DNA from: Sedimentisphaerales bacterium | Lineage (GTDB): Bacteria > Planctomycetota > Phycisphaerae > Sedimentisphaerales > Anaerobacaceae | Direction: 5' to 3' | NCBI GenBank assembly: GCA_963708075.1 | Contig: OY970194.1 | Location: forward strand, 3,936,001 to 4,000,000 | DNA length: 64,000 bases | Shown: one piece after another, positions 4,344-21,453 of the stretch | Position numbering within the stretch: the first letter of the stretch is position 1 | How the letters are laid out: each line of letters begins with the position of its first letter | The notes under the pieces: generated by a model | The model's database searches: none | Told to the model about the DNA's origin: nothing | Seen by the model: only the letters and a program-made list of their open reading frames with translations | Made by a program: the position numbers and the translations under genes

Positions 4344-5951
4344 CTTCTCTCCTGCTTCGATGCGGTCTTCTTTTGCGCGGCCTCTGCGAGAGGATAGCGG
4401 CGGACCTCCACGTCGTTCTTCTGCTTCCCGCCCGGCGTGCTGCGGCCATCCGTGACAACTTTCTCCATCAAGGCACGCATCTCGGCGACGAGCTCAGGCT
4501 TCTCTGCGGCAAGGTTCGTCTTTTCACCGATATCGTCAGCAAGGTTGTAGAGCTGGACATCGGTCCTTGCTTTCGGGTCTTGCTCCAGGATGAGTTTCCA
4601 CGGGCCACGACGCAGACCGGGAACACCGTTGGATGCACAACTGACGGCATGTTCGCGAACCGGCTGGTCCCCGCCCTTGAGCAGCGGCAGCAGGCTGAAG
4701 CTGTCCTCGCCGGCATTGTCCGGCAATCTCATGCCAAGAACATCGGCCAACGTGGCGATGAGATCGGCGTGGTGAACGAGCTGCTCGCACACCGCACCCG
4801 GTTTTACCTCGCCGGGCCAGCGTACGATGAACGGCACGCGATGCCCGCCTTCGAACACAGCCCCTTTGTAGCCACGGAGCGGACCGCTCGGAAAATGGCC
4901 CTTCATTTCGAGCTCGTCCGCGCCGATGTAGGGAGCACAGCCATTGTCGCTGGTGAACAAGACGATGGTGTTCTGGGCCGCACCACTTTCGCGCAGCGCC
5001 TCGAGCACACGACCCACCACGGCGTCGGTTCTCCATCACGAGATCGGCATAGAGGTTCAAGCCGCTCTTGCCGAGCCAGGGCCCGTTCACGGCCAAGGGC
5101 GTGTGCGGAGACGTGAGTGGCAAATAGAGCAGGAATGGCTGCTTCGCCCTCACTTGGCGATGGATGAAGTCCACTGCACGGTCGCCAAGCGTGGGGAGGA
5201 TAGCTTCGAGCTGCCAGTCCCGCAGCGCCGGCCCTTGAAGACTGGCCTGGTTCGTCGCCAGCTTATCCACCGGCAGCAACTCGCTCGGGATGCCCACGGT
5301 GCGGTCGTTCTCGATGAAACAATATGGCGGCCAATTGGGCACATCGGTACCGAAGTACTCGTCGAAGCCGCGCGTGGTCGGCCCGCCCGGGATGGGTCGG
5401 GAGAAAACGTCTCGCCACGTCGCACGGTGCGCATCGGTGACGGTGGTGGAGACCTGGCCGCCACCGCCGGCCTGGCCGCCGAACCCGGTGAAGTGCGGCC
5501 GCTGTTCCTCCGTGATCGGCCAGTCGCGACCGAGATGCCATTTGCCGATGCACGCGGTGCGATAGCCGTGCTGCCTGGCGAGGCCGGCCACTGTGAGCCG
5601 GTCCGGTGCGATGAGCGGCGCACCCCATACGGAAACGATCCCTTGCTGCAGCCGCGACCGCCAATGATAGCGGCCCGTCAGCAGCGTGTAACGTGACGGC
5701 GAGCACACGCCGGAACTGGAGTGGGCGTCCATGAAGCGCATTCCCTCAGCAGCCAGGCGGTCCACATTCGGCGTGGGAATCTTCCCGCGTTGCGGATTGT
5801 AACAGTGAACGTCGCCGTAACCCAGGTCATCGGCGAGGATGATGACGATGTTGGGCTTGCCCGAGGAAGCTGCCCGGGATATCGCCGGGACGGCGCCAAT
5901 CCCCACTCCGACCACCAGCGCCAACGTGATGAATGAGACTCGATGTTCCAT
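4340..5951 (-). CDS. Arylsulfatase A-like sulfatase, split by a +1 frameshift near 5030 (probably a sequencing error)
   Basis: Start MEHRVSF at 5951; KPNIVIILADDLGYGD, CSPSR, GKWHLG in ORF 4536-6410; TSDNG, RGYKG, EGGHRVPF in ORF 4340-5020. Removing one A from GAGAACCGAC restores ...VMETDAVVGRV. Confidence 0.85.
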
Positions 5952-5957
5952 GTCACG

Positions 5958-5966
5958 ATTATAGCA
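5958..5966 (-). promoter_or_regulatory. Extended -10 promoter (TGcTATAAT) directly upstream of the sulfatase ATG
   Basis: Minus strand reads TGCTATAAT-CGTGAC-ATG, with no Shine-Dalgarno in between. Confidence 0.55.
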
Positions 5967-6465
5967 CCCTCGCTGCCCCTTTGCAGCAGGCAATATGTGG
6001 CGTGGGGACATCCCATAGAGTACAGGTATTGTCCCATCGTAAGTAGATATGACTGTAGAACTTGCGACATCGCCCGGCGGAAGCATTTGCCTCACCTTCT
6101 TGGTCGATGAGCCTCTATGAACCATGAAACAGAATCTGTGGCGCAAAGAGGTATATCGACCGCTGTGACGCAGAGATTGCTGGAGCACTCCGGTCCACAG
6201 CTCACCAATGACGTATGCACAAATGTCGATCCCGTGCTGTGTCAGGCGATCAGTTAGTTGCTGGTGTCGGAATGGGTTTGATGGCCATCTGACAGTGGTC
6301 GATCTCACCGAGCGACTGCGATTCAGATAGTCTCCGTGGAAGACCTGGCCGGTCATGGAGATGGGCACAAGAATCCTTTTCGGAGGTTGTGCCAGTGCCC
6401 CTATTTCCATGCAGGCAGGTGCGTCAGCTATGTCAGAATAGATCCAGAGTATACAGGAGGGGACC

Positions 6466-6690: not shown

Positions 6691-7491
6691 ATGAACACAG
6701 TCCAGGCATACAGATTCTGCGTCCTTCCCTACGCCAACGCCCTTCCCCTCGTCCACTTCATGACAGACGTCTATCCCCCAGCGAAGCTGTTTTACCGTGT
6801 GCCACGATCAGCGGTCGGAGGCTTGTTAGAGGGCGTAGTTGACGCGGCGTTGATTCCCATTGTCGATTGCTTCGCCCATCCCGATCTCGTGATGATTCCG
6901 GGATTGGGCATTTGTGCCGACGGCGACGTTACGAGCGTTCTCCTGCAATGCCGTCGGCCGCTGTCGCAGGTCAGAGTCGTCGGACTTGACCCCGAGTCCA
7001 GAACATCGAATACCCTCGTCCAAGTGCTGATGCGGGACCACTTTCGGATCTCTCATCGCGTTGAATACAGCCTGTGTGATGATGAGGCGGATGCCTGCGT
7101 GTGCATCGGCGATCGCGCCCTGTGTGCGGCGCCGGCGGTGGAAACGTATGATCTCGCCGGGGAATGGAAGAAGATGACCGGCTTACCGTTCGTCTTCGCC
7201 GTCTGGGCTGTGCAGCGGTCGTGCCCTGATCTCGAGGAAATCTCGTGGATTTTGCACCGCGTCAGGGATCGTGGATGCCACGCCATTGGCGAACTGGCAC
7301 AGCTCTGTGCGCAGCGGCTGGGTCTGCCTGAGAACCGTTGCCATGAGTACCTTGCGAATCGCCTGTACTACGATGTGGGGCCCGCGGAATGTGAGGGCAT
7401 GGGCTTGTTCCGAGGTCTCGCCGCGAGCCTCGTCAGACAAGGGGCAGACCACAGACAAGGGCAGAATACCCCAGTCCCCGAGTGGAGTTGA
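6691..7491 (+). CDS. mqnA: Chorismate dehydratase (futalosine pathway)
   Basis: PYANALPL, GICADGDVTSV, SRTS, IGDRAL, DLAGEWKKMTGLPFVFAVW motifs; directly upstream of mqnE/mqnC-type domains. Confidence 0.88.
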   Translation: MNTVQAYRFCVLPYANALPLVHFMTDVYPPAKLFYRVPRSAVGGLLEGVVDAALIPIVDCFAHPDLVMIPGLGICADGDVTSVLLQCRRPLSQVRVVGLDPESRTSNTLVQVLMRDHFRISHRVEYSLCDDEADACVCIGDRALCAAPAVETYDLAGEWKKMTGLPFVFAVWAVQRSCPDLEEISWILHRVRDRGCHAIGELAQLCAQRLGLPENRCHEYLANRLYYDVGPAECEGMGLFRGLAASLVRQGADHRQGQNTPVPEWS

Positions 7492-7492
7492 C

Positions 7493-9670
7493 ATGTTACA
7501 ACAATGGAATGAACGAATCTCCCCGGAAGAGGCGCTGAACCTCTTGACAAAAGCGGACACGGCCGAGCTGATGGCCCGGGCTGATAAGGTCCGCCGGCAA
7601 AGACACGGTGCGAACGTCTACCACGTGCACAGTCTGAACCTGAATCCCACCAATCTATGCGAGAATCGTTGCGGCTTGTGTGCATTCTGGCGCGAAGCCG
7701 GGTCGGGCGAGGCTTATACACTAAGCCTTCAGCAGGTTGAGGAAAGGCTCGAGAGAGCCAGAGGATGGGGACTCACCGACGTTCACATCGTCGGCGGCCT
7801 GAACCGGGAATTGGGCCTTGACTACTATGTCGAGTTGCTTCGCATCACCAAGCGGGTGCTGCCCACGACAGCGATACAAGCCCTGACTGCCGTCGAGGTC
7901 CAGTGGCTTTCGGATCGTGCCGGCAAATCAGTGGCCGAAGTGCTGGCAATGCTGAAGGCAGCCGGCCTGGATGCCCTGCCGGGCGGAGGAGCGGAGATCT
8001 TCTCCACACGGGTCCGAGAGAATATTTGCCCAAAAAAGCTTCCCGCTGATCAATGGCTCCATGTGCACCACATCGCCCACGACCTGGGTATCCCGAGCAA
8101 CGCGACCATGCTCTTCGGACACGTCGAAACCCCGGAAGAGATCGTGGACCATCTATGCAGACTCAGGACTCTGCAGGACCAGACCGGAGGTTTTCAGGCC
8201 TTCTGTCCTCTTCCTTTCCACGCGAAGGGCACGCAGATCGGTGTGGCGCGAGGTCCGGGCGGGCATGCCATCGCCCGGATCGTGGCCCTGGCCCGCATCT
8301 TTCTCGACAACTTCCCGCATGTTCGAGTCCTGGCCAATTTCCTCGACCGCAAGCTGCTGCAGACGTTGCTTTTCTGCGGGGCCGACGACATCGGCGGCAC
8401 CAGCATCGACGAGCAGATCGCTCGCTCAGCCGGAGCTTCCGACGACTGCTCGTTCCACGACCCTGAGGAGATGGCGACTTTCATACGGGAACTTGGACTT
8501 CGTTCGGTACTCACGAGCAGCCTGTATGACCATCGCAGCCGAAGACAACCGCAGGCGCAGGTCCCGTTGCTCGCTTCAAAGGCGGCAAGGGCTTTGCAGA
8601 AAGCAGAGGCTGGACAGCGGCTGAACGCCGAGGAAGCGACATGGCTCCACGATACCCTGCCGTTCTACGAACTGGGACGGATCGCCCATGAGCATCGCCG
8701 GCAAGTCATCGGCGACCAGCGATCCACGTTCATCATCGATAGAAACATCAGCTTCACGAACGTCTGCACCGTCGGATGCAAATTCTGTGCGTACCACAAG
8801 GGGCCCAGGGATGGCGATGCATTCACGATGTCGATTGAAGAGATCGTGCGACTCGTGGAGGAGGCGGCCGGCCTCGGCGCCACCCAGATCATGCTTCAAG
8901 GCGGCCTGAATCCGGCCCTGAGTTTCTCCTGGTATAAGGACATGCTTCGGGCCATCAAGGATCGTGTCCCCGCTGTCTGGCTGCATTCGCTGTCCCCCGC
9001 GGAGGTGCTGTGGCTCGCGCAGCGCTCCCATCTGCCCCTCAGGGACACCCTTGTGCAACTGCGAGAGGCCGGCTTGGATTCGCTACCGGGAGGCGGCGCC
9101 GAGATTCTCGTGGATGAGGTTCGCCAAAGAGTCAGCCCGGCGAAGATCACGACCCCTCAGTGGCTTGAAGTCATGGAGATAGCCCACAGTCTGGGTATGG
9201 GCACGACGGCGACGATGGTCTATGGCCTGGGCGAGACGACAGCCGATCGCGTGCAACACCTGCTGCACGTCCGCGACCTTCAGGATCGCACCGGGGGCTT
9301 CCGGGCCTTCATTCCCTGGAGTTTTCAGTCGAATCACACCCGGCTCTCCGAGCGGCCGCAAACCGGCGTGGATTACCTTCGCATGGTCGCCCTGTCCCGC
9401 CTGGTTTTGGATAATGTTGAGCACATCCAGGCCGGGTGGGTCACCGAGGGACCGTATATGGCCCAGATCGCCCTGACTTTTGGAGCGGACGACTTCGGCG
9501 GCGTCCTGATGGAAGAGAGCGTGGTCAAGGCCACCGGCATCAATCACACCGTGACGGCCGAACAAGTAATCGCCCTGATCGCCGAGACCGGGATGACCGC
9601 CGCCCAGCGAGATACGGAGTACAAGACTCTTCGAACCTTCGACAGGCAAAGGACCCTGAAAAGCGCGTGA
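7493..9670 (+). CDS. mqnE-mqnC: Fused double radical-SAM protein: MqnE-like (aminofutalosine synthase) N-half plus MqnC-like (cyclic dehypoxanthine futalosine synthase) C-half
   Basis: ATG at 7493, about 725 aa, one continuous frame. Two CxxxCxxC motifs (CENRCGLC; CTVGCKFC) and two PGGGAEI motifs. N-half has HIVGG, NATMLFGH, LQDQTGGF; C-half has IDRNI, MLQGG, FIPWSFQ, QAGWVT. Confidence 0.85.
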   Translation: MLQQWNERISPEEALNLLTKADTAELMARADKVRRQRHGANVYHVHSLNLNPTNLCENRCGLCAFWREAGSGEAYTLSLQQVEERLERARGWGLTDVHIVGGLNRELGLDYYVELLRITKRVLPTTAIQALTAVEVQWLSDRAGKSVAEVLAMLKAAGLDALPGGGAEIFSTRVRENICPKKLPADQWLHVHHIAHDLGIPSNATMLFGHVETPEEIVDHLCRLRTLQDQTGGFQAFCPLPFHAKGTQIGVARGPGGHAIARIVALARIFLDNFPHVRVLANFLDRKLLQTLLFCGADDIGGTSIDEQIARSAGASDDCSFHDPEEMATFIRELGLRSVLTSSLYDHRSRRQPQAQVPLLASKAARALQKAEAGQRLNAEEATWLHDTLPFYELGRIAHEHRRQVIGDQRSTFIIDRNISFTNVCTVGCKFCAYHKGPRDGDAFTMSIEEIVRLVEEAAGLGATQIMLQGGLNPALSFSWYKDMLRAIKDRVPAVWLHSLSPAEVLWLAQRSHLPLRDTLVQLREAGLDSLPGGGAEILVDEVRQRVSPAKITTPQWLEVMEIAHSLGMGTTATMVYGLGETTADRVQHLLHVRDLQDRTGGFRAFIPWSFQSNHTRLSERPQTGVDYLRMVALSRLVLDNVEHIQAGWVTEGPYMAQIALTFGADDFGGVLMEESVVKATGINHTVTAEQVIALIAETGMTAAQRDTEYKTLRTFDRQRTLKSA

Positions 9671-9678
9671 CACTGCCA

Positions 9679-11166
9679 ATGACAGCCCATGAGACGGTTC
9701 TACTGACAGGCATCACAGGGTCCATCGGAAGCTGGGTCGCCGGAACGATCCTGCAGGACGGCGGGCGAATCGTGGCCATCGTCCGGGCCGATACCGAGTC
9801 TGCCGCTGCCGCCCGAGTGCGCGAGGCACTGGCGGTCGTTAGCGTCCAAGAGCACGCCGATCATGTCAAGGCGGTGTGCGGGGACATCTGCGACGGCCAG
9901 CTTGTTGGACATCTCATCAGGGGGGAGACGGGAATATCGCACATCGTGCACTGCGCCGGCATGGTGGAGTTCGGGCAGGAGTTCGCGGCGTTGAGCCATC
10001 GAGTCAACGTGGAGGGAACCGCCAACCTGCTGACGCTGGCCGAGAAGCTCAGGGTCCCCTTTTGTCATTTCAGCACCGCCTACGTTGCCGGCGACCGACA
10101 GGGGCGGGTGTTCGAACATGAGACTTCTATGGGTCAGCAGTTCCACAATCCCTATGAGTCTTCCAAGTGCCAGGCCGAGTTGTTGGTCCAAGACTGGGCG
10201 ATGCGCACAGGTCTTGGTGCGTTCATGTTCCGGCCGAGCATCGTTGTCGGGGATAGTCGGCAAGGACGCATCGTCCACTTCGACGGGCTCTACAACTTCA
10301 TGCGCATGCTCGACAGCGTCGCAGGGGCCGTCGGCACGCGAGAGTTCCGTGTCGTAGCCAACCCGGATGCGACGAAGAATCTTGTGCCCGCCGACTACGT
10401 GGCCCGTGCCGCCTGGCACATTATCAGGACAAGTGCTCCCCGGACCTACCATATCACAAATCCTCAGCCAGTGTCGCTTGCAGTGCTCCGGGACATCTTT
10501 GCCGATCTGTTCGCCGTCCCCGGGGCACGGCTTGTGCGGGAGGAGGAATTCCGTCGGAAGAAACCCGATAGATTCGAGTCGATGTATCAAAAAGCGGCCG
10601 TTCAGTATGCCCCGTATCTGGCCGCAGAGCCGGTTTTTGACCGGACGAACACAGACACTGCCCTGCGTGACACTTCCCTGATGCCGCCGGAGATGAATAT
10701 GGCTTTCTTTCAAAAACTGCTGGACTATGCACGAAGAACCAAGTGGGGCAAGGCACACACGGAGCCTCCTGTCATGCTCCCGGGGCGAGAAAGATTCGTG
10801 GAACAGTATTTCGACAGCTTCCTGACCGAGAAGATGCACCAGCAACTGCTGCCCAACCTTAAGCATCTGACCGCAAGCTGCCGGATTGCCGTGGAAGACT
10901 TGCCCGGGCGGTCGTGGTCGCTGAGAATCGACCAGGGCCGGCTTGAGGAGATATCGCAAAATGGCATGGTCTGTCAGTGCACGTTCTCCCTCCACAGCGA
11001 CACCTTCTCGGCGATTGTCGGCGGCAGGCTCGCCCCGCAACAGGCATTCTTTCAGAGGAAGATCCATATCGCAGGCGACATGGAGACGGGCCTGAAATTG
11101 GCCACTGTCCTGGCGGCGTTCTTCAAGAAATGGCCCTACGACATGGAGACGCACCGTGTGGGATAG
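9679..11166 (+). CDS. Thioester/acyl-CoA reductase-type extended SDR fused to a C-terminal SCP2 lipid-binding domain
   Basis: LLTGITGSIG, HCAG, NVEGT, STAYV, YESSK, RPSIVVG; C-terminal GRLAPQQAFFQRKIHIAGDMETGLKL is SCP2-like. Alternative GTG start at 9667 overlaps the upstream stop. Confidence 0.82.
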   Translation: MTAHETVLLTGITGSIGSWVAGTILQDGGRIVAIVRADTESAAAARVREALAVVSVQEHADHVKAVCGDICDGQLVGHLIRGETGISHIVHCAGMVEFGQEFAALSHRVNVEGTANLLTLAEKLRVPFCHFSTAYVAGDRQGRVFEHETSMGQQFHNPYESSKCQAELLVQDWAMRTGLGAFMFRPSIVVGDSRQGRIVHFDGLYNFMRMLDSVAGAVGTREFRVVANPDATKNLVPADYVARAAWHIIRTSAPRTYHITNPQPVSLAVLRDIFADLFAVPGARLVREEEFRRKKPDRFESMYQKAAVQYAPYLAAEPVFDRTNTDTALRDTSLMPPEMNMAFFQKLLDYARRTKWGKAHTEPPVMLPGRERFVEQYFDSFLTEKMHQQLLPNLKHLTASCRIAVEDLPGRSWSLRIDQGRLEEISQNGMVCQCTFSLHSDTFSAIVGGRLAPQQAFFQRKIHIAGDMETGLKLATVLAAFFKKWPYDMETHRVG

Positions 11167-13334
11167 TCTCACGACAATCCTGGCCGACAGAAGTCGATGG
11201 ATCGCCGTGGCCTGCCTGTGCAGCGTCGCGATTCCCGTCTATTGGCTCAGAAATGCCCGCGTCGATAACTCAATCGAGGTGTGGACGGGGACAAGGAGCA
11301 GGACGCACCGCAGCTATCAGCAGTTCCTAGAGAAATACGGGAACGAGGAGTTCGTCGTGATTGCCGGCGAGGCAGAGGACCCGCTCTCCGAGGAGACATT
11401 GGCCTTTCAGGGCGACCTGGCGTCGCGCCTGCGACAGATCGATGGGGTGGAAGGCGTTCTGGATATTACGCAGGCGGCCGCCGCCTTCGAAAAGTACAGG
11501 CCCGAGGACTGGAAAGAGTCTCTCAGCGGCACCGGCTTTTTTCGGAATCTGCTGCTCGGCAAAGATGGACGCACATTCGGCGTCATCGCCTGGCTGCGGA
11601 AGATTGATGATCCCCCTTCGAGAAGGCTCGTGGTCGAAGAGATCGAGTCGGCGGTTGCCCAAGTCGCCGGTGACGGGAGGCAGATGCATCTGGCCGGGAC
11701 GCCGCTATTGAACGTAGCCCTCGACCGCGGCTCCCAGGAAGCATCCCGGCGGATTCTGCCCGCGGCCCTGGCTGTCTCCCTGGTTATTCTGGCGATCGTT
11801 CTGCGACGCGTCAGTGGAGTCATCGCGGTGATGGCCGCGGTGGGCGTGACCACGCTCTGGACTGTTGGCCTGATGGTTCTGGCCGGCAGAACCTTCAACA
11901 TGGTAACGGTGGCTCTCCCTTCCCTGCTGACGGTTCTTTCGCTCTCGGCCGGGATTCACATCGTCTTGCGAATCCAGTCGCTGCTGGCTGACATGGGGGA
12001 CCGCCGCGCCGCCGTGCGCGAGACTATTCGGGAAGTATTGCCGGCGGTTCTTCTATCGAATGTCACCACGGCCATCGGATTCGGCTCCTTGATGATCTCG
12101 GACATGCAGCCTGTCTCGGACTTCGGGTTGTTCGCCGCCGTCGGCATGATGCTCTCATTCCTTTTCAATGCGACCATGGTGCCGGGAATTCTCTCCTGGC
12201 TGCGTCCTGGTGCTATCACAGTCTCTGCGAGAACCGACGCACTGGACCTCGCCCGTGGGGCGGGCCGTCGCATCACGAAGAATCTGGTTCCTGGGCTCCG
12301 CGCTCGTCATACTGGTCGTCTCACTGCTGCTTATGACGGGACTTCGCGTGGAGTCGAATGTGCTGAAGTTCTTCCCGGCCGATTCAAAGGTCCGCCGGGA
12401 TTACCAGTTCGTTGCCGAGCAGCTCACGGGCCTGTACACCATCGAGCTCGATGCCGTGACCGACTCGCAGAACGGGAGCGTCCTGCTCAAGCAGATCGAG
12501 CAGCTAGGCACTGAACTGGCCGCGCGATCCGAGGTGGCTCAGGTGATTCACTACAAAAGTATCGCCACCGCCCTGGACCCAATTCGCCAGTCTGTTTTCG
12601 TCGAGACGGCCAGGGCTTCGGAGAATCCCCTGAAGCTCCTGGCGAAGAAATACCGTCATGCGGACGACGGTCGAATCTCGCTGCGAATGTCGATCCTGGT
12701 GCGTGCAATGTCAGGCACGGACTTCTATGCCTTGATGGATTTCGCACAGCAGGCGGCACAGCGGCTTGAGCCTCCGGCCACATACACGCTGACCGGCGTG
12801 GTCCCGCTGCTGAATTCGGCCCAGCGATCTCTGATCACCACGCAGGTCCGCAGTTTCGCCACAGCGGCAATCACAGTGCTGGCCCTGGTTGGCCTGTTCT
12901 TCTGGTCCTGGAGGGTCTTCCTCGCGGCCGCACTGCCCAATCTGCTCCCGACGGCGATCCTCTTTGCCGCGATGGCGGTTCTGAAGATACCCTTGGACGC
13001 GGCGACAGTCATGATCGCAGGCGTAGCTATCGGCATCGCCGTCGATGATACTTTCCACTTCTTCTCCTGCTACCGCGAGGCGAGGCAATCCGGGCAGGAC
13101 AGCCCGACGGCGATTTACAACAGCTTTCGCACGACCGGACGAGCCATCTTGTTCACGTCCGTCGTCGCCACCGCCGGCTTTGTCATTCTTCTGCTGGCCG
13201 AGTTCAAGCCGATCCAGTACTTTGGCCTTCTGGCCGGCGTGACCATGCTCACAGCCAGTGCGGCCGATTTCCTCGTGCTGCCGGCCTGCGTGGCTTCTGT
13301 GAACCTGTGGCATCGACAAGGGCAAGAACAGTGA
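11156..13334 (+). CDS. MMPL/RND family exporter, split by a +1 frameshift near 12230
   Basis: Two MMPL repeats: LSNVTTAIGFGSL..PVSDFG in ORF 11156-12514 and IAIGIAVDDTFHF..TGRAILFTS..GF in ORF 12168-13334. Removing one A from GAGAACCGAC joins the frames (..SARPTHWTS..). Confidence 0.82.
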
Positions 13335-14413
13335 ACGTGAAATCATCGTTTCTCGTCAGACTTGAGCACGTCCTTCGAATCCACTTCGATGCCAATCGCG
13401 GTGCGCCCTATTGGCTCGAGAAACAGCGTGAGCTTGGGATCGACGCCATCGAACACATTCGAACCATCGAGGACCTCGCCCTCCTCGGGCCTATGGATGA
13501 GCGTGCGCTGTCCGAGCGCCCTATCGAGGATTTCATTCCCAGGGTATTTCGCGAAAACAACGATCATCTTCTCGCCGAGACAGCCGGGACCCTGGGCAGG
13601 CCTAAAACCGCCGTCCACAGAGCGGATGAATTCGAAGCGGCCTTCATCGTGCCATTCGTCAAGGCCGCCGGCAGAGCGGACTTTCCCGAAGGCGGCCACT
13701 GGCTGTTCATCGGGCCGACAGGGCCACACATCATCGGCCGGGCGGCACGGCGGTGCGCCAGAGCCCTTGGCGCCGCGGACGCATTCACGGTGGATTTCGA
13801 TCCGCGATGGGCCAAGAAACTCCCGGCCGGCAGCTTCGCCGCGAAGCGATACCTGGCGCACATCGAGGAACAGGCTTTGGCCGTTCTCGAAGTCCAGAAT
13901 ATCGAGGTGCTCTTCGTGACGCCCGCTGTCTTAAGCAGTCTGACCGAGAGAATCAGCGAGGCGAAGCGCATGGCCATTCGCGGAATCCACCTGGGCGGCA
14001 TGGCAGCCTCGGCCGAGTTCATGCAGCGCACGACGGGACTGTTCCCCAACGCAGTGATCCTGTCAGGCTACGGCAATACTCTGTTTGGAATGATGCCGCA
14101 ACTTTGCTACTCGCATGAGACAGGTTTCGACTACTTCCCGCATGGCGACCGTCTCGTCGTTCGCCTGATCCCACTGTGCGAGGATGGGGACAAGCCGGAA
14201 ACCGCCGCCCATGTCGATTACGGCCGGCGGGGCCGGGTCATGGTGCACCGGCTGGATGAAATGCAGTTTCTGCCGAACCTGCTCGAACGGGACACCGCCG
14301 TACGGATTCCTCCGGAGCCCAGCGCCGCAGCCGACGGCTTCTTCCAGGATGGTCTCCGCGACCCGCAGCCGATCGTCAGCGAAACCATGAAGCCGGCCAT
14401 AGGATTATATTGA
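13331..14413 (+). CDS. GriC/EhpF-like adenylate-forming enzyme (PaaK/LuxE-related aryl-acid activating subunit)
   Basis: HF..RGAPYWLEK..LGID..EDL..PIEDFIPR N-terminus, ETAGTLGRPK P-loop, GPTGPHIIG, DFDPRW, GYGNTLFG, VDYGRRGRV, FLPNLLERD. GTG start overlaps the MMPL stop (GTGA). Confidence 0.7.
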   Translation: MNVKSSFLVRLEHVLRIHFDANRGAPYWLEKQRELGIDAIEHIRTIEDLALLGPMDERALSERPIEDFIPRVFRENNDHLLAETAGTLGRPKTAVHRADEFEAAFIVPFVKAAGRADFPEGGHWLFIGPTGPHIIGRAARRCARALGAADAFTVDFDPRWAKKLPAGSFAAKRYLAHIEEQALAVLEVQNIEVLFVTPAVLSSLTERISEAKRMAIRGIHLGGMAASAEFMQRTTGLFPNAVILSGYGNTLFGMMPQLCYSHETGFDYFPHGDRLVVRLIPLCEDGDKPETAAHVDYGRRGRVMVHRLDEMQFLPNLLERDTAVRIPPEPSAAADGFFQDGLRDPQPIVSETMKPAIGLY

Positions 14414-15123
14414 TGTTGCAAGCTGCATCGGAAGAACATGTGACGTTCCTGAGCGGAGCGGTTCGGCTCAGAGGAGTCCTCTCCTACCCGGAGCAGGCCC
14501 GGCCGGAGCTTGCGGTGCTGTTGTGCTCTCCGCACCCGCACTTTGCCGGTGACATGAACAACAACGTGATCTGCGCCGTCGCCCAACGTCTCGCCGCTCG
14601 CTGCGCGGTCATGCGATTCGATTACCGGGGTGTCGGGGAAAGTGAGATCAGCCTGGGGCCCGACGAGTCGGCCTTTGACTACTGGAATGAGATTGAGGAG
14701 ACGAAGGATTATCGCGATGCCGTCGAGGATGTCGCTGCGGCGGCCCGGGCACTGCTCGCGGCGACGGAGTCTCTCGACGTGGGCCTGTCAGTCGTGGGCT
14801 ATTCGTTCGGTGCGGCCACAGGCATGCTCTTTGCCTGCCACGAGAGCCGCGTGGAGAAGATGGTTGCGATCGCCCCGCCGCTGGGCAAGGTGCCTTTCGA
14901 ATTCCTTTCGGATTGCTGCAAGCCCAGCCTCCATATAGCCGGGAGGAACGACTTCCTGTATTCGGATGAGAAGATGGCCGCGTTTCGTCGGTCCGTTGGA
15001 CCGGCGGCGAGAGTTGTGGTCCTGGATGAGGCGGACCACTTCTTCCGAGGCGACGAGAACTCGGTGGCACGACAAATCGAGGAATATCTGCTTGGTACAA
15101 AAGGAAATCAGCATGGGTCTTGA
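14413..15123 (+). CDS. Alpha/beta-fold hydrolase
   Basis: PHPHFAGDMNNNV, RFDYRGVGES, GYSFG nucleophile elbow, GRNDF, ADHFF; TGATG stop-start overlap. Confidence 0.85.
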   Translation: MLQAASEEHVTFLSGAVRLRGVLSYPEQARPELAVLLCSPHPHFAGDMNNNVICAVAQRLAARCAVMRFDYRGVGESEISLGPDESAFDYWNEIEETKDYRDAVEDVAAAARALLAATESLDVGLSVVGYSFGAATGMLFACHESRVEKMVAIAPPLGKVPFEFLSDCCKPSLHIAGRNDFLYSDEKMAAFRRSVGPAARVVVLDEADHFFRGDENSVARQIEEYLLGTKGNQHGS

Positions 15124-17080
15124 GAAGAAACCCGAGATTCTCGCTCCGGCCGGCACGCTGGATGCGGTCCGCCAGGTGATCGATGCCGGCGCCGACGCTG
15201 TCTACGTCGGCGGCAAGGGTCTCAATATGAGGCAGCATCGGTCAAGCTATAACCTGACCGAGCCGGAGATCGCCGAGGCAATCGAGCTCGTTCACCGCGA
15301 GGGCAAGAGGCTCTATTTCACGCTGAATAGTCTGATCTTCGATTCGCAGCTCCCGCAGTTGCGGGAAGTTCTGGCCATGCTCGGCCGGCTCGGCCCCGAC
15401 GCCATCATCCTCCAGGATCTGGCCGTGGCAAGCCTGGCTCGGGAGATTTGCGTGCACGTGCCGCTCCACGCCAGCACGATGATGAACGTGCACAATGCGG
15501 AAACCGCCCTGGCGCTGAAGATGATGGGATTTGTGCGGGTCATTCCGTCCCGCGATATCCCGCTCCACGAGATCCGTCGTATCGGCGAGCGCTCGGGCCT
15601 GGAGATGGAGTGTTTCGTCCATGGCGATATGTGCATCTCGCAAAGCTCGCAATGCTACCTCAGCGGGATTCTCTTTGGCGAAAGCGCCAACTGCGGCCGC
15701 TGCATGAAGCCGTGCCGGTGGCAGTGGAAACTGGCCGTCCGTCAAGGCGACGGCGAATCGCTCGATCATGGAGAGGGCTACCTGCTGGCCCGCAAGGACC
15801 TGTGCATGCTGCCGCACATTCCGGCACTGGTCCAAAATGGCATCGCTGCCCTGAAGATCGAGGGCCGGATGCGGACGGCGGAGTTCCTGGCCCCTGTCGT
15901 GGCTCTTTATCGCAAGGCGATTGACTCCTATTTTGAAGATCCCGTGGGCTACACCACGAACGCGGGCGATATCCACAACCTCATCTCGCAACGCGTCCGC
16001 GAGATGACCACCGCGCACATGTTCGCCAATCCCGGCCGCGAGGGCGTTGACACGACGGGCAAGCGAGAACCCCGTTTCTTCAGCCATGCCTCCCCGGCCG
16101 CGCAGTTGACGGTGGGACAAGACGTGGCTCCGCACACCCCTGCAAAGTGGCCCGAACTGATCGTTCATGTCTCAACCGTGGCCGGGGCTGAAGCGGCTGC
16201 CGGCGCCGGCGCGAACGCGATCTACTTTTGTGGCGAAGGCTTCTGTCTGCACGGGGGAGTCCCGAGTGCGGAGGCCATCGGCAGCTTCGCCCGCAAGGCT
16301 GCTCAGAACAGCATTCGTATTGGTGTGATGATGCCGCACGTTTGCGATGAGCGGGACATGGCGGAGTGGAGGCGCCGCCTGCACGAACTCATCGCCTGGG
16401 GGAATCTCACCGTCGGTGTGTCGAATCTGGGCAGCCTGCAGATGGCTCGTGAGGAAAGGTGGCGTGACATCTTGACGGATTACCCGCTGAACACGGCCAA
16501 TTCCATTGCTGTCGATGAGCTTTCGACCCTTGGGGCACAGCGCGTCACGGCCTCGGCGGAGCTCACTTTTCAGCAGTTGTCTGCGTTCACAAAGGCGGTG
16601 CGGATGCCCATCGAGATCATCGGCCAAGGCCCAGTTTGTGGCATGCTGCTGGAGCATTGCGTGTTGGCGACTGCCGGCGGGCAGAACCCGCAGGGTGTTT
16701 GTTCGATGCCGTGCCGACGGGGTGTCTACGCACTGGAGGACACAGCATCACAGATCTTTCCGCTGGAGACGGACCGTCGTTGCCGCAATCATATCTTCAC
16801 GCCGGCGGATGTCTGCGTGTTGCCCAATCTCTCGCGGATGCTGTTGCTGGGCATCTCCGGCTTGCGGATTGAAGGCCACTTGGACAAGCCTGAAACGGTC
16901 GCAATCGTCACGCAAATCTATCGTGAAGCGATGGACTGTTTGAGAAATGGCCAAGCCATCGATGTCGCCGACGGGCTCTCGAAGATCTCCGCCGCCACAG
17001 AGCGCCCGCTCAGCGACGGGCCTTTTGACTTCCAGTCCATCAGGGTGATAGACAAGGAGAAAGAGCTTGCCCGAACATGA
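15113..17080 (+). CDS. Tandem U32-family (two-domain) Fe-S protein, probable O2-independent hydroxylase
   Basis: PEILAPAG, GADAVYVG, HAST, FVHGDMC with Cx6Cx15Cx3C, LKIEGRMR. A second U32-like domain from about 16150 has IYFCGEGFC, SNLG, LNTAN, SAELT, EHC-x13-C-x3-C, LRIEG. Confidence 0.82.
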   Translation: MGLEKKPEILAPAGTLDAVRQVIDAGADAVYVGGKGLNMRQHRSSYNLTEPEIAEAIELVHREGKRLYFTLNSLIFDSQLPQLREVLAMLGRLGPDAIILQDLAVASLAREICVHVPLHASTMMNVHNAETALALKMMGFVRVIPSRDIPLHEIRRIGERSGLEMECFVHGDMCISQSSQCYLSGILFGESANCGRCMKPCRWQWKLAVRQGDGESLDHGEGYLLARKDLCMLPHIPALVQNGIAALKIEGRMRTAEFLAPVVALYRKAIDSYFEDPVGYTTNAGDIHNLISQRVREMTTAHMFANPGREGVDTTGKREPRFFSHASPAAQLTVGQDVAPHTPAKWPELIVHVSTVAGAEAAAGAGANAIYFCGEGFCLHGGVPSAEAIGSFARKAAQNSIRIGVMMPHVCDERDMAEWRRRLHELIAWGNLTVGVSNLGSLQMAREERWRDILTDYPLNTANSIAVDELSTLGAQRVTASAELTFQQLSAFTKAVRMPIEIIGQGPVCGMLLEHCVLATAGGQNPQGVCSMPCRRGVYALEDTASQIFPLETDRRCRNHIFTPADVCVLPNLSRMLLLGISGLRIEGHLDKPETVAIVTQIYREAMDCLRNGQAIDVADGLSKISAATERPLSDGPFDFQSIRVIDKEKELART

Positions 17081-18359
17081 GCCCATAGGCCCGCAGGCGA
17101 TTCTGGCCAAGAAGCAGCAATACCTGATTCCCTGCTCGTACCATTTCTACAGGGATCCGCCTCAAATCGTGCGCGGCCAGGGGATCTACGTGTACGATTC
17201 CGCCGGCCGCAGGTACATGGACCTCTACTCCGGCGTGAGCGTTCATGCGCTGGGCCACTGCCATCCGGAGATGGTCGAGGCCATCTGCCAGCAAGTCAGA
17301 ACCCTGCAACATACAAGCACGATCTACCTGACAGAGCCCATTGTGAACCTGGCCGAGCAACTGGCGAAGGTGCTTCCCGGGCAGATTCGCAGGACTTTCT
17401 TCTGCTGCAGCGGCAGTGAAGCCAATGAAGGGGCGGCTTTGCTGGCGACGCTCCATACCGGCCGAAGCGAGTTCCTGGCCTTCCAGAATGGCTTGCACGG
17501 CCGCACGAAGTTGGGCATGAGCCTGACAGGCCTTGGTCTTTGGCGCACCGATCCCAACCCTGTCGGCGGGATTGTGCACGTGCCGCCGCCGCACTGCCGA
17601 AGTTGCCCGTTTGGGCAAAGTCTCGGCCAATGCCAATATCAGTGTGTCGCCGCTGTGGAGACCGCCATTCGCACGGCCACCAGCGGCAAGCCCGCCGCCA
17701 TGTTCGTCGAGCCCGTGCAAGGCAATGGCGGCATCATGGTCCCGCCGCCGGAGTACTTCCCCAAACTGCGTGAGGTCCTGAACCGGTACGGCATGCTGCT
17801 CATCGCTGATGAAGTCCAGACGGGTTTTGGACGCACCGGCAGAATGTTCGCTATGGAGCATTGGAACATCGCGCCCGATATTGTCACGGGCGGCAAGGCG
17901 CTGGGCGGGGGCACACCGGTGGGTTTCTTCTCCACGACCGACCAAATCGCCGCTAGTTATACCAGGCCCGGCGCATCGACCTTCGGCGGCAATCCCGTGA
18001 CGGCTCAGGCAGGCCTCAAGTTCCTGGAGATCCTGCAGCGTCAAGCCCTGGTGGACCACTGTGCCCGGATGGGAACCCTGTTACAGGGTCGCCTCAAGAA
18101 AATGGCTGAGAAGTCCGATATGGTCTCGGACGTTCGGGGTCTCGGATTGATGGTGGGGGTTGAGATCGCCGGGCATGGAACGCTATCTGCCGCCGAATGT
18201 ACGGATCGTATCCTAGAACGCATGAAAGATGTGGGGTATTTGCTGGGCAAGACCGGCCCCAGCCGCAATGTCCTGACATGGATGCCCCCTCTGATCATTC
18301 GACAAGAAGAGCTGATGGAGGCTATCGACGCCCTTGAGAAGACTCTCCAAAGTCTGTGA
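17067..18359 (+). CDS. Class III PLP-dependent aminotransferase
   Basis: AAGGAG RBS with TTG start; LGHCHP, SGSEANE, HGRT, EPVQGNGG, IADEVQTGFGRTG, GKALGGG (PLP Lys), STFGGNP. Confidence 0.9.
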   Translation: MPEHEPIGPQAILAKKQQYLIPCSYHFYRDPPQIVRGQGIYVYDSAGRRYMDLYSGVSVHALGHCHPEMVEAICQQVRTLQHTSTIYLTEPIVNLAEQLAKVLPGQIRRTFFCCSGSEANEGAALLATLHTGRSEFLAFQNGLHGRTKLGMSLTGLGLWRTDPNPVGGIVHVPPPHCRSCPFGQSLGQCQYQCVAAVETAIRTATSGKPAAMFVEPVQGNGGIMVPPPEYFPKLREVLNRYGMLLIADEVQTGFGRTGRMFAMEHWNIAPDIVTGGKALGGGTPVGFFSTTDQIAASYTRPGASTFGGNPVTAQAGLKFLEILQRQALVDHCARMGTLLQGRLKKMAEKSDMVSDVRGLGLMVGVEIAGHGTLSAAECTDRILERMKDVGYLLGKTGPSRNVLTWMPPLIIRQEELMEAIDALEKTLQSL

Positions 18360-19329
18360 CTCCCGGAGGCAGCCCGTTGCCAGGCTGCTCCTGGCAATAG
18401 CGGTATTCGCCATTCTCCTGGCGAGCTGCGCCTCATTCAAGCACCTGACGCTGGTGAGCAACACATTCCCGAGCGCCAAGGATTGTGGCAAATGCCACGT
18501 TGAGATCTACCATGAGTGGTCGCAGTCGGACCATGCTCACGCCTATACGAACCTGCACGTTCGGGCAGCAACAGATGATTACAGGTTCGAGAGCTGCCTG
18601 AGCTGCCACTCGCCCGAACCCACGCTGACGGATCGCGCTCCCACCGTTCGGGCGGCCGGCCGTGAGGAAGGGGTCACCTGCGTCGCCTGTCACCTCGATC
18701 AGGGTGCTCTTGCGGGTCCGCTGGAGCCGACCGGCAAAGTTCATCCGCATCCGATCAGCGTTCGGCCGGAAATCTACCACAGCAGTGGCATTTGCGGCCG
18801 ATGTCATGAAGGCACCATGACGCAGTGGGAATCAGTCCATGTGGAAAAACGAACTTGCCAACAGTGCCACATGGAATCCGTCACACGCAAGGTCACCCAG
18901 GCCACGGGCGGAATATCCAATGTCCTGGTGGCCATGGAGAAACAGGTCCCCCAGAGACGCCACAAGTTCTGCATTCTCGGCGACGCGCAATCACAAGAAC
19001 TCGTCACCCTGACGATCGAATCCTTGGGCGGCACGCTCGATGTTGTGGTCGAGAACAACCTGCCCCACAGCCTTCCGACAGGCGATTTCGGCTTTCGAAT
19101 CGTGACTCTGGAAGTCTTCGGCATCGACGCCGGCGGCAAGTCGATTCTCGCCGGAAGCTGGGAACTGGCTGGGGAATCCTCGACCGCCATTCCTGCGCAA
19201 GGGGCACGAGCGTGGTCATTGGATATCGGCCCCGGCTGCAAAACGGCCCGCGCCGTCCTGACTCGACGCAGCTACGACCAGGAGGCTCTCGTGCTGGCGG
19301 AGGCACAGGTGGAGGTGGCGAAGCCATGA
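18334..19329 (+). CDS. Pentaheme cytochrome c lipoprotein (c554-like) with C-terminal beta domain
   Basis: Lipobox ILLASC; five CxxCH (CGKCH, CLSCH, CVACH, CGRCH, CQQCH); EWSQSDH and PHSLPTG motifs. TTG start uncertain. Confidence 0.82.
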   Translation: MRRLSKVCDSRRQPVARLLLAIAVFAILLASCASFKHLTLVSNTFPSAKDCGKCHVEIYHEWSQSDHAHAYTNLHVRAATDDYRFESCLSCHSPEPTLTDRAPTVRAAGREEGVTCVACHLDQGALAGPLEPTGKVHPHPISVRPEIYHSSGICGRCHEGTMTQWESVHVEKRTCQQCHMESVTRKVTQATGGISNVLVAMEKQVPQRRHKFCILGDAQSQELVTLTIESLGGTLDVVVENNLPHSLPTGDFGFRIVTLEVFGIDAGGKSILAGSWELAGESSTAIPAQGARAWSLDIGPGCKTARAVLTRRSYDQEALVLAEAQVEVAKP

Positions 19330-21308
19330 AGAAGGAGACGATTCGTCGCTTCACCCGGCCGGAATTAGGGCTACACTGGAGCCAGGCAGTGCTATACATC
19401 CTGCTGTTCGGCTCGGGCACGCTTCTGCTGGTCGGGCGAATCCTCGATCATCCGCTCGCCTCTCAGAAGTCTCTCGGGGCGCTCCACCGCGTTGCGGGCG
19501 TCGCACTTGTCGTACTCCTGGGCCAGGCTCTGTTGCTCAGTATCGTTGCGGACAACTTCCGCAGCTTCTGGCGCACGCTGCGAGAGTGTCTGCGCTGGCG
19601 ATGGGGTGACGTCGTCTGGCTCGTCAAAGTCCCGTTCAATGCCATCACGCGACGAGTGAAGCTGCCGCCCGCGGATCGCTTCAACGCGGGCCAGAAGCTC
19701 CACGTGCTGGTCATCGTCTGTGTGCTGGTCGGCTTCAGCATCTCGGGCCTGCTGATGATGCTCATACCCGGAGCGCTCGGGCCATGGATCATCCACCTGA
19801 TCTGTTTCATCCCGGCCGCCGCTTTCCTGGCGCTGCATCTGTTCCTGTCACTCCTGAATCCCGAGACTCGAAAGGCCCTCCCGTCGATCTTCTCGGGCCA
19901 CATGTCGTTGGAACTCGCTCGACGACACCACGGTCTGTGGGCAGGACAACCCGACTCGGCGGAACACCCATCCTATGTATCCCTCCGGATGGTGCTCATC
20001 ATGATCGCTCTGGTAATGGTCGTCGCCGGGGTCTTCGCGATATGGTATGGACCGGCAAAAGTCTCCGGCGTTGTGGCAGCCACAATCACCCGCCACGGCA
20101 CAAATGCAATCACGCCGGCGTCTCTTTCCAAGGTCCATGACGGTGACAACGCGGATACCGACAACTGCGCATCTTGCCATTTGCCGATGGCATCGCCGCC
20201 TTCGGAGAAATGCCTTGTCTGCCACACGGAGATCCAGGAGCGAATGACGGCCGGATCGGGCTTCCATGGCAAGATTGCCGGCTCGTGCAGACAATGCCAC
20301 ACGGAGCACAAAGGCACCGAGGCCATCCCCATATCACTGGACCGACAGGCATTCAACCACGGCAACACCAACTTTCCGCTCGATGGCAAACACCAGGCCG
20401 TGCCATGTGAGAAGTGCCACGAAAGGACCGGCCCGGACACTGCCGGCAGAATGCAGTACACCGGGCTTGACTACAAGAGTTGCATAAATTGCCACTACAA
20501 CCCGCACAATGACCCGCGCGCCAGCCACTGCCTCGAATGCCACACTATGCAAGGCTGGGACCGCGATAATCTGACGTTCGATCATGATCGTGACAGCCAA
20601 TTCCCACTCCTGGGTGCACACGCCAAGCCGGATTGCGAGAAATGTCATCCCCGCCAGACAACAAATGGCCGGGTGCAGGTCCGCCTGTTTGACGTTGGCA
20701 AGTCCTGTCAGGATTGCCATGCCGACCCGCATGCCGGCCAGATGAGCTCTGCGTGCGGCACCTGCCACACGGAGACAGGCTGGACCGGGAACAACCTCGT
20801 ATTCTCGCATGATAAGCACTCATCGTTCCATCTGGATAGGCTTCATTCCTCAGCGAGTTGCGATGACTGCCATGGCCGACAGGCCAGGCGTTATCGTCCG
20901 CTGCCACGCGAATGCGACACGTGCCATACGATCCAACAGGCCGCCATGCAGGGAACCGCACGGGTGCTCTCCGGGCCCCCTGATCCTCACAATGACCGAC
21001 TCTCCTGCACGGATTGTCACGATGTGAACACACCAAGACAACGCCAGGAGGAGTTCGCCGCCAGGTGTGCAACCTGTCACAATTCCCGATATGGCGCCCT
21101 GTTCTACTCCTGGGCGAATGCTCTTGATGAAAACCGTGCTTCAATCAAACAGAACCTGAAACGCATCGATGATCCGAATGACGCGAGAAGGCTCCGGCTC
21201 GAGCAAATCCTGGAAGATGCGGCCGCAGCAGGTTTCCACAACCTGAATCTGACTCAGGAGATCTTGCGGGCAGAAACTCCGACACATCCAGAGAACGTCA
21301 ACAAATAA
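19326..21308 (+). CDS. Cytochrome b (FdnI-like, membrane) fused to a 13-heme cytochrome c domain
   Basis: ATGA overlap start MKKETIRRF; LHW, LHR, RFNAGQK, IH..LH histidines in four TM helices, a fifth TM, then 13 CxxCH motifs counted, partly in repeated FxH..FPLxGxH..CxxCH..CxxCHxxPH..CxxCH..GW units. Confidence 0.85.
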   Translation: MKKETIRRFTRPELGLHWSQAVLYILLFGSGTLLLVGRILDHPLASQKSLGALHRVAGVALVVLLGQALLLSIVADNFRSFWRTLRECLRWRWGDVVWLVKVPFNAITRRVKLPPADRFNAGQKLHVLVIVCVLVGFSISGLLMMLIPGALGPWIIHLICFIPAAAFLALHLFLSLLNPETRKALPSIFSGHMSLELARRHHGLWAGQPDSAEHPSYVSLRMVLIMIALVMVVAGVFAIWYGPAKVSGVVAATITRHGTNAITPASLSKVHDGDNADTDNCASCHLPMASPPSEKCLVCHTEIQERMTAGSGFHGKIAGSCRQCHTEHKGTEAIPISLDRQAFNHGNTNFPLDGKHQAVPCEKCHERTGPDTAGRMQYTGLDYKSCINCHYNPHNDPRASHCLECHTMQGWDRDNLTFDHDRDSQFPLLGAHAKPDCEKCHPRQTTNGRVQVRLFDVGKSCQDCHADPHAGQMSSACGTCHTETGWTGNNLVFSHDKHSSFHLDRLHSSASCDDCHGRQARRYRPLPRECDTCHTIQQAAMQGTARVLSGPPDPHNDRLSCTDCHDVNTPRQRQEEFAARCATCHNSRYGALFYSWANALDENRASIKQNLKRIDDPNDARRLRLEQILEDAAAAGFHNLNLTQEILRAETPTHPENVNK

Positions 21309-21453
21309 GTAGCACATCCAAGGGCCTGAAATTGGGCGGATAGGCTTCCTACCCGCTCTGTCACGGGCAGCAAGATTCACCGCCGGCCGGAAAACAGCGC
21401 AGAGATACAGGATATGCTCTATAATGCGAGAGGCCTATGTTCGGAGATCGTCC

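Follow-up and report, generated by a model that had tools for sequence, protein, structure and literature searches.

We analyzed a 64,000-nucleotide stretch of the genome of a Sedimentisphaerales bacterium (Planctomycetota; contig OY970194.1, positions 3,936,001 to 4,000,000; hereafter the window), which contains a ten-gene operon that couples early genes of the futalosine menaquinone pathway (mqnA, mqnE and mqnC) with tailoring enzymes, an exporter and multiheme cytochromes. The locus is not one of housekeeping menaquinone synthesis. Its conserved unit is a tailoring core composed of a reductase-SCP2 protein, an adenylating ligase, a hydrolase, usually a transaminase and often an MMPL exporter, to which mqnA/E/C are an add-on. 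With a probability of about one half, we infer that a late futalosine intermediate keeps its carboxyl group, receives a fatty rather than a prenyl tail and functions as a quinone for the co-encoded cytochromes. The respiratory quinones known to us carry prenyl tails; if confirmed, a naphthoquinone that is linked through its carboxyl to a fatty tail and has its own cytochromes would be a new class of carrier.

The mqn genes serve the cluster

The operon comprises the following genes (positions in the window, strand):

6691..7491, +: mqnA, chorismate dehydratase, 266 amino acids (aa); PF02621, and its PDB matches are chorismate dehydratases
7493..9670, +: MqnE-MqnC fusion, 725 aa, with two radical SAM domains (TIGR03700 and TIGR03699)
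9667..11166, +: thioester-reductase-type short-chain dehydrogenase/reductase (SDR; NAD_binding_4) fused to SCP2; family scan and conserved motifs
11156..13334, +: MMPL/RND transporter, in two frames in this assembly; family scan
13331..14413, +: GriC/EhpF/ThnN-type adenylating enzyme (the ligase), 360 aa, without its usual GriD partner; profile against PDB
14413..15123, +: alpha/beta hydrolase, putative acyltransferase; Ser (in GYSFG), Asp and His conserved
15113..17080, +: U32-U32 tandem protein, 655 aa; double U32 domain with four conserved Cys per half
17067..18359, +: class III (omega) aminotransferase (the transaminase); family scan, pyridoxal phosphate lysine conserved
18334..19329, +: pentaheme cytochrome c with a lipobox-like Cys; five CxxCH by motif count
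19326..21308, +: cytochrome b561/FdnI-type membrane domain fused to 13 CxxCH; family scan and motif count

The ten co-oriented genes span positions 6691-21308 and are closely packed, with junctions that overlap or lie 1 bp apart. Open reading frame (ORF) calls and family scans thus confirmed the layout proposed by an earlier annotation made from the letters of the window (hereafter the sequence-only reading). Start codons are uncertain for the reductase (9667 or 9679), the hydrolase (14410 or 14413) and the pentaheme protein (about 18334). Chance grouping is excluded, because gene order is kept in relatives with 58-83% ligase identity; the flanking genes vary among the relatives inspected. A promoter/terminator scan gave results at chance level (3 vs 3.6 and 9 vs 11.0).

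MqnA, MqnE and MqnC resemble the enzymes of the futalosine pathway in family scores and motifs; the fusion protein has two CxxxCxxC motifs and, as a whole, exceeds the cut-offs of both TIGR03700 and TIGR03699. Unlike in that pathway, which is absent from most of this order, MqnE and MqnC are fused, seven extra genes are coupled to them and the late genes are missing from the genome. The latter is a single contig of 7.5 Mb, in which the cluster copies are the sole mqnA/E/C and mqnA is the sole PF02621 gene. At its completeness of 92.8%, MqnD, UbiD, UbiX, MenB and MenD were not found, and there was no MqnP among its four UbiA-family genes (two MenA-like, one DPPR synthase and one EboC-like). All four lie outside the window, as do MenG and MTAN. 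These genome-wide searches agree with the sequence-only reading, which had reported no mqnB/MTAN, mqnD, UbiA-type, MenG or UbiD/UbiX gene in the window and had concluded that this is not a housekeeping locus. It had also asked whether the genome has a separate, complete mqn set. There are no further mqnA/E/C copies; that the cluster holds the only mqnA/E/C does not refute its idea of an offshoot, because the late pathway is missing.

The distribution of these genes in the order was consistent with this. PF02621 occurred in 14 of 201 genomes, six in family f2 and eight elsewhere. Outside f2, mqnA was found in 8 of 191 genomes, exactly those with a close ligase (E at most 1e-180; two further weak matches in the order are paralogues). 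Each of these eight cluster genomes had one PF02621 match, which was MqnA-like and in 7/8 lay beside the cluster, and none had UbiD. In family f2, PF02621 was present in 6/10 and UbiD in 5/10 genomes, without a close ligase. Because late-pathway genes are missing and occurrence matches that of the ligase, mqnA/E/C act for the cluster, and the known route to menaquinone cannot be finished with them. In addition, the MqnE half fell into a clade of 26 rows within MqnE (SH-aLRT 100, stem 0.6), formed by 21 cluster copies and five sequences without context, in a quick tree of 83 rows from a subset of 120 listed homologues; the separate clade that the sequence-only reading had suggested looking for is thus present, long-stemmed and inside MqnE.

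A variant route to ordinary menaquinone, in which U32-U32 replaces MqnD and MenA and MenG encoded elsewhere finish the molecule, would fit the sole mqnA/E/C copies, the two MenA-like genes and MenG of this genome, as well as two long-contig anammox-type genomes (G122:C1 and G126:C3) with a single MqnA-sized PF02621 match. However, no MqnP, UbiD or UbiX was found in the source genome, and MenA is present in 176 of the 201 genomes of the order, unlinked and irrespective of the cluster, which we read as precursor salvage. MenA takes the other regio-isomer, and this route would leave ligase, reductase, transaminase and hydrolase jobless. We consider it highly improbable.

A tailoring core with exchangeable slots

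Using the ligase as bait, we fetched 79 GTDB and 80 metagenome loci; the following counts refer to the 70 loci of at least 15 kb, not dereplicated. The hydrolase was present in 69, the reductase in 69, the transaminase in 58 and MMPL in 40 (within the fetched stretch), while mqnA was found in 19 and MqnE/C in 16. The full ten-gene set occurred in 11, so the genes do recur as a unit in other genomes, as had been expected. What the sequence-only reading missed is that mqnA/E/C are an add-on, that the tailoring core is widespread in Planctomycetota and anammox-type genomes, and that slots of the operon can be swapped.

Two such slots were identified. The first was occupied by U32-U32 in 23 loci, by an MqnD paralogue (MqnD') in 36 and by both in two. 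The paralogue usually sits between ligase and transaminase and carries an IHE motif; three hosts examined had it as their third PF02621 copy, in addition to an MqnA and an MqnD of the housekeeping kind. The second slot contained the pentaheme lipoprotein in 21 loci, another, unannotated lipoprotein of 370-540 aa in 46 and both in none. A lipobox-like Cys pattern was found in 40 of 46 homologues of the pentaheme protein. The predicted fold of the alternative lipoprotein (predicted local distance difference test score, pLDDT, 92.8) resembled an NLP-like beta-sandwich (Z 9.4, root-mean-square deviation 3.7, 171 aligned residues; next unrelated row 2.9), and Foldseek gave no match for it at E 0.001. 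A monoheme cytochrome accompanied it in 16 of the 46 loci, and GT2 occurred in 14 of the 70. As side observations, this lipoprotein (L061:4062-5171 and 45 other long loci) has a conserved ETxxxCGCxH motif, and its Atlas look-alikes belong to unnamed clusters, mostly from Thermodesulfobacteriota.

Slot traits changed 6-9 times on a quick ligase tree of 86 rows, with at most five starred independent pairs. Because independent-pair tests were not significant, we treat slot exclusivity as a pattern and not as a result.

Gene fusions gave additional information. SCP2 was fused to the reductase in 74 of 93 ORFs. Four longer ligase forms were found, namely a hydrolase-ligase fusion, a ligase-MqnD' fusion and two partial MMPL joins; there was no ligase-reductase fusion among these four, which is weak evidence. 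Ten transaminase-less module loci carried an unannotated domain of about 170 aa, single or in tandem, with no match in Pfam or Atlas. In seven loci, all among those without U32 or MqnD', it was fused to an ArsS-type radical SAM domain (over the TIGR04167 cut-off) and abutted the reductase gene:

Fusion to ArsS-type radical SAM: L049, L050, L055, L056 (5461-7737), L060, L081, L090
Single-domain forms: L030:2409-2951, L039:4355-4957, L087:4480-4974

Two divergent loci were also noted. In L080:4779-15486, a class III aminotransferase of another subfamily directly follows the reductase and neither U32 nor MqnD is present. In L011 (G027:C18), MMPL is a 61 aa remnant, an NrfH-type multiheme protein replaces cytochrome b and a B12 radical SAM gene lies upstream, which scored below the TIGR04072 cut-off and was not recurrent in related loci.

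The ligase family extends beyond the module. In a phylum sample of 301 genomes, a ligase match was present in at least 104, about 33 of them module-type, the rest scoring like the paralogue. The nearest paralogous ligases adjoined a GriD-like dehydrogenase in 9 of 11 loci inspected, and this set is a separate conserved cluster. Clusters of GriC paralogue and GriD (L323-L332 and L013) are widespread in Planctomycetota, often with an Fe-alcohol dehydrogenase, a solute symporter, a radical SAM gene and a halogenase-like gene.

Proposed pathway

MqnA, MqnE, a nucleosidase (MqnB or MTAN) and MqnC convert chorismate to cyclic dehypoxanthine futalosine. In the proposed pathway, mqnA/E/C would have been acquired to feed the core in this lineage, because it otherwise lacks the futalosine pathway, and a nucleosidase from outside the cluster would supply the adenine-removing step. 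The genome's MTAN exceeded its cut-off and has a signal/lipobox-like start, while the MqnB model was below cut-off. This MTAN gene (L173:1489-2370; G000:C1 about 2,840,400-2,841,300) adjoins a purine permease-like gene, and its product is possibly periplasmic. The enzyme of the first slot, MqnD' or here U32-U32, would then yield an aromatic, hydroxylated naphthoate, the U32 version probably by prephenate-type hydroxylation independent of O2. Passages of PMC10990095 and PMC6747719 describe O2-independent, prephenate-using hydroxylation by U32 proteins and the binding of lipophilic intermediates by an SCP2 partner.

Because neither a prenyltransferase nor a decarboxylase is available, the carboxyl group would be the natural handle, and a tail could come only from reductase-SCP2, transaminase and hydrolase. 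The carboxyl would not be removed, and the GriC-type enzyme would adenylate it, as passages of PMC10179220 describe for GriC acting on an aryl acid. The module ligase matched EhpF over its full length (profile against PDB, E 6e-40; AMP-binding-like in the family scan). We take the role of EhpF to be aryl-carboxylate activation and substrate binding. The claim of the sequence-only reading that the aryl carboxyl is kept and activated is supported as probable. The reduction of the aryl acid that it proposed next is only one of two candidate routes; in the other, a fatty amine tail would be the product of reductase-SCP2 and transaminase.

In the route that we narrowly prefer, reductase-SCP2 would act on a fatty acyl thioester of housekeeping origin and reduce it to an aldehyde, from which the transaminase would make a fatty amine; ligase and hydrolase would join amine and aryl acid into an N-alkyl naphthamide. 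The preference arises because the reductase is of the thioester type, SCP2 is commonly fused to it and the cluster has no carrier for an aryl thioester. The nearest PDB entry of the reductase is the MxaA reductase domain, and its NAD(P) motifs (GxxGxxG, S and YxxxK) are conserved. In the alternative, which is that of the sequence-only reading, ligase and reductase would turn the aryl acid into an aldehyde, followed by amination and acylation by the hydrolase; it is nearly as good, because GriC normally pairs with a reductase and a different reductase is nearly always present here. Either route would give a lipid-tailed quinone without a prenyltransferase. MMPL would carry the product to the outer leaflet, where the membrane cytochrome b/multiheme module and the pentaheme lipoprotein may exchange electrons with it.

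Two observations suggest a coupling of ligase and hydrolase and also favour the fatty-amine route. One is the natural hydrolase-ligase fusion. The other is a predicted complex of the two proteins, which passed weakly (0.37 vs 0.00 for the best control; 96% or more of the contacts agreed between runs; partner pLDDT of 89 or higher). This mark was cleared by 116 of 157 solved pairs and by 2 of 215 mismatched ones, but only 18 of the 157 solved pairs cleared it at 0.60 or less, as did both mismatches; a pass at the 0.37 level is more often wrong than right unless the pair is likely beforehand.

A different product was also considered, namely a futalosine-derived amphiphile that keeps the ribose-derived polyol. 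In that case, the transaminase would act on the C1 aldehyde of the ribose, the tail would be attached by ligase, reductase and hydrolase, and MMPL would export an envelope lipid or ligand; redox function would be secondary or absent. HpnO aminates a ribose C1 aldehyde in this way for aminobacteriohopanetriol, and ArsS-type radical SAM is another adenosyl-transfer enzyme, here found in loci lacking both forms of the first slot. The eight cluster genomes of the order have no MqnD, so the sugar arm need not be cleaved; the NLP-like beta-sandwich of the alternative lipoprotein is a fold solved with amino sugars; and the GT2 genes and weak HpnN matches of MMPL would also fit. However, the IHE-bearing MqnD paralogue in half of the long loci points to aromatisation, multiheme and cytochrome b genes go together with the U32 version even in distant lineages, 16 of the 46 lipoprotein-type loci also have the monoheme cytochrome, and MqnC would be superfluous for a purely structural lipid. 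Such an amphiphile appears unlikely, and we retain the fatty-tailed quinone as the preferred product.

Anammox-type genomes and cytochrome modules

The class that includes Candidatus Anammoxibacter (G101, the genome of L029) was represented by 121 genomes. A strong ligase match was found in 56 of these, U32-U32 in 55 and both in 54; 52 had a strong pentaheme match, including 48 of the ligase-positive genomes. This coincidence bears on the view that the operon is a mosaic, with the U32 protein acting as an RNA hydroxylase and the cytochromes as unrelated neighbours. The best NCBIfam match of the U32 protein is indeed TrhP, below cut-off, and the membrane cytochrome differs by lineage, yet the source genome has a separate U32 protein (32% identity) and in the relatives inspected the flanks differ while the block is kept. 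We find a mosaic hardly credible.

Among the 54 hydrazine-synthase-like genomes, defined by one or two HZS_alpha copies (mostly frames of 810-845 aa; G172 and six multi-copy genomes were set aside), 36 had the ligase of the U32/cytochrome version, which was not found in the other 18 or in any of the six multi-copy genomes. G112 lacked ligase, transaminase orthologue, U32 and pentaheme together; the transaminase orthologue was also missing in G205 and G218 had only a broken copy. Twenty of the 56 loci of this class were fetched. All 20 had the order ligase-U32-transaminase, with reductase and SCP2 in 18, MMPL in 18 and pentaheme in 18, and there were no mqn genes in these 20 loci. In the proposed pathway, anammox bacteria and other Planctomycetota would feed the core from housekeeping mqn copies. 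The pentaheme gene of G122 is about 1.2 Mb away from its module. A general replacement of MqnD by U32-U32 in anammox menaquinone synthesis was considered and dropped, as many such genomes keep a second PF02621 gene. A link to ladderanes was also dropped, as the module occurs in many non-anammox genomes and the B12 radical SAM gene upstream in G027 scored below cut-off and was not recurrent.

The membrane cytochrome took several forms according to lineage: an FdnI-type cytochrome b with 13-19 hemes, an NrfH-type 20-heme protein, petB/petD-like genes, or a 208 aa unassigned gene with 16 hemes and a ferredoxin-flavoprotein. At L206, petB- and petD-like genes, a pentaheme, a NapC-type decaheme and an 11-heme protein followed in succession, and the ORFs scanned included no Rieske gene. 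Reaction with quinols is typical of the families involved (FdnI-type cytochrome b, NrfH/NapC-type and petB/petD-like). That the membrane cytochrome varies while the pentaheme stays argues for a quinol-like partner.

Published expression data include a comparable locus. A Brocadia contig in the PMC7188810 supplement (genes EX330_00365-00445) lists, in order, an epimerase/dehydratase, a sterol carrier, an RND exporter, a hypothetical protein, U32, an aminotransferase, cytochromes and a hydrolase, which we matched to the module by annotation and order and not by sequence. According to the supplement the locus is transcribed (base means 18-428); on the electrode, expression is lower for reductase, SCP2 and putative ligase (log2 fold changes -1.3, -2.5 and -1.3; adjusted P 0.004, 0.0002 and 0.015) and higher for EX330_00370, a gene of the same locus. 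The sign of these changes was taken from the electrode-induced pentaheme gene EX330_07910, and the relevant passages of PMC7188810 do not treat the Brocadia genes as a pathway. Identity of EX330_07910 (Shaw et al.) with the module pentaheme was rejected, as its neighbours place it at another locus.

These data are relevant to another candidate product, an aminomethyl- or amino-naphthoquinone that is small and diffusible. It would be exported to act as an extracellular electron shuttle, an antibiotic or a signal, and the cytochromes would recharge it. The operon has an exporter and a lipoprotein cytochrome, its patchy spread in the order is secondary-metabolism-like, and GriC/GriD yield free aryl aldehydes (in passages of PMC10179220). 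On the other hand, SCP2 and a thioester-type reductase imply hydrophobic intermediates, and three matching Brocadia core genes fall on the electrode while the induced pentaheme gene belongs elsewhere. The shuttle suggested by the sequence-only reading is thus disfavoured, and we regard a diffusible product as quite unlikely.

Comparison with known systems

The dedicated futalosine offshoot has one precedent that we found, the gon cluster for PM100117/PM100118 of Streptomyces caniferus. Passages of PMC4763440 describe dedicated mqnA/E/C(/D) without a clustered mqnB, and a naphthoate carboxyl that is kept and activated by an AMP-dependent ligase, as in our proposal; the gon cluster uses MqnD, a methyltransferase, ketoacyl synthase III (KSIII) and polyketide synthase (PKS), and the quinone is hung on a macrolide. 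In contrast, the module has a GriC-type ligase, reductase-SCP2, transaminase, U32-U32, MMPL and cytochromes, with no PKS or KSIII among its ten genes or the recurring neighbour families. Its tailoring genes, its coupling to respiratory cytochromes and its spread set it apart from this precedent. No description of the module was found in the open-access literature, to which the search was confined, subscription papers lying outside it.

Individual enzymes resemble parts of other systems; the locus draws on housekeeping menaquinone synthesis, GriC/GriD and UbiU/UbiV but belongs to none of the three. The ligase is homologous to EhpF and of the same type as GriC of the grixazone GriC/GriD pair, whereas a GriD-like dehydrogenase gave no tblastn match in the source genome or the module loci. 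An SCP2 protein with two U32 domains of four conserved Cys each recalls UbiT/UbiU/UbiV (passages of PMC6747719 and PMC10990095), although here the U32 domains are fused, their motifs (CX6CX15CX3C in the first half, C-x13-C-x3-C-x22-C in the second) differ from the CX6CX16CX38C of UbiU and from the motif of UbiV, and there is no ubiquinone pathway context. Scores of U32-U32 were below the UbiU/UbiV cut-offs (178 vs 440 bits and 60 vs 275 bits), and it has no PDB relative by sequence. Tambjamine TamH, as described in passages of PMC9594044, resembles the module in that a thioester reductase and a class III transaminase could build an alkylamine tail. Unlike in TamH, the enzymes are separate here and the cluster has no carrier protein, so this is an analogy only.

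Evidence against the proposed quinone and its possible significance

Several observations weigh against a fatty-tailed respiratory quinone. The adenine-removing step has no clear enzyme, since the MTAN has a signal/lipobox-like start. The module is dispensable, as the cluster is present in 4 of 13 genomes of its own genus, and it was not found in 18 of the 54 hydrazine-synthase-like genomes. In many anammox-type genomes, a second PF02621 gene of MqnD size is kept alongside U32, and the main quinone reported for Kuenenia in passages of PMC12954380 is menaquinone-7. Among 86 dereplicated loci, the heme-free NLP-fold lipoprotein replaces the pentaheme in 44, and 12 have neither U32 nor MqnD'; exclusivity in both slots (U32/MqnD and pentaheme/lipoprotein) is not significant once kinship is allowed for. 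The ArsS-type fusions suggest a general chassis that may take other head groups. As for the tail, the GriD neighbours of the paralogous ligases favour aryl reduction over the fatty-amine route, and the TamH reductase is AAR-type, not a homologue of the module SDR.

A broader proposal is made tentatively. Planctomycetota, including most anammox-type genomes, would possess a second respiratory quinone that is not isoprenoid, namely a naphthoquinone of futalosine origin whose carboxyl is linked to a fatty amine. A cytochrome b/multiheme complex without a Rieske protein would be dedicated to it, and in anaerobes a U32 enzyme with two clusters would act after MqnC without MqnD. Passages of PMC12954380 and bioRxiv 855817 state that electron movement into and across anammox membranes is an open question; the module points to specific genes and a predicted lipid to seek in existing anammox cultures. 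If correct, the proposal would also assign a function to an uncharacterised U32 subfamily, a GriD-less GriC clade, the MqnD paralogue and the unannotated NLP-fold lipoprotein. In addition, automated quinone surveys could mistake mqnA/E/C in these genomes for menaquinone synthesis.

The exporter frameshift and neighbouring genes

Because of one extra base at about 12232, MMPL reads as two frames, 11156-12514 and 12168-13334. This base is absent from relatives L014, L094 and L095 and from one contig of run X3; the nearest run, X1, listed no difference there, though its cover of the site is uncertain. Of 19 related loci inspected, 17 have MMPL as a single frame of 729-739 aa, and the extra base is likely an assembly error. 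The export step of the sequence-only reading is variable, as MMPL occurs within the fetched stretch of 40/70 loci, is reduced to a remnant in G027 and is frameshifted here. A second MMPL (26-33% identity) and multiheme cytochromes akin to the 13-heme domain are encoded at about 461,900-465,400, 787,000-788,000 and 1,022,000-1,023,700 of G000:C1. An ORF of 945 aa (window 21424-24261) lies 115 bp past the operon, with no Pfam or NCBIfam match and not recurrent among neighbour families. An upstream sulfatase (4340-6410) and a downstream beta-propeller phosphoesterase (24449-27140) also look frame-split, which suggests single-base errors in the assembly.

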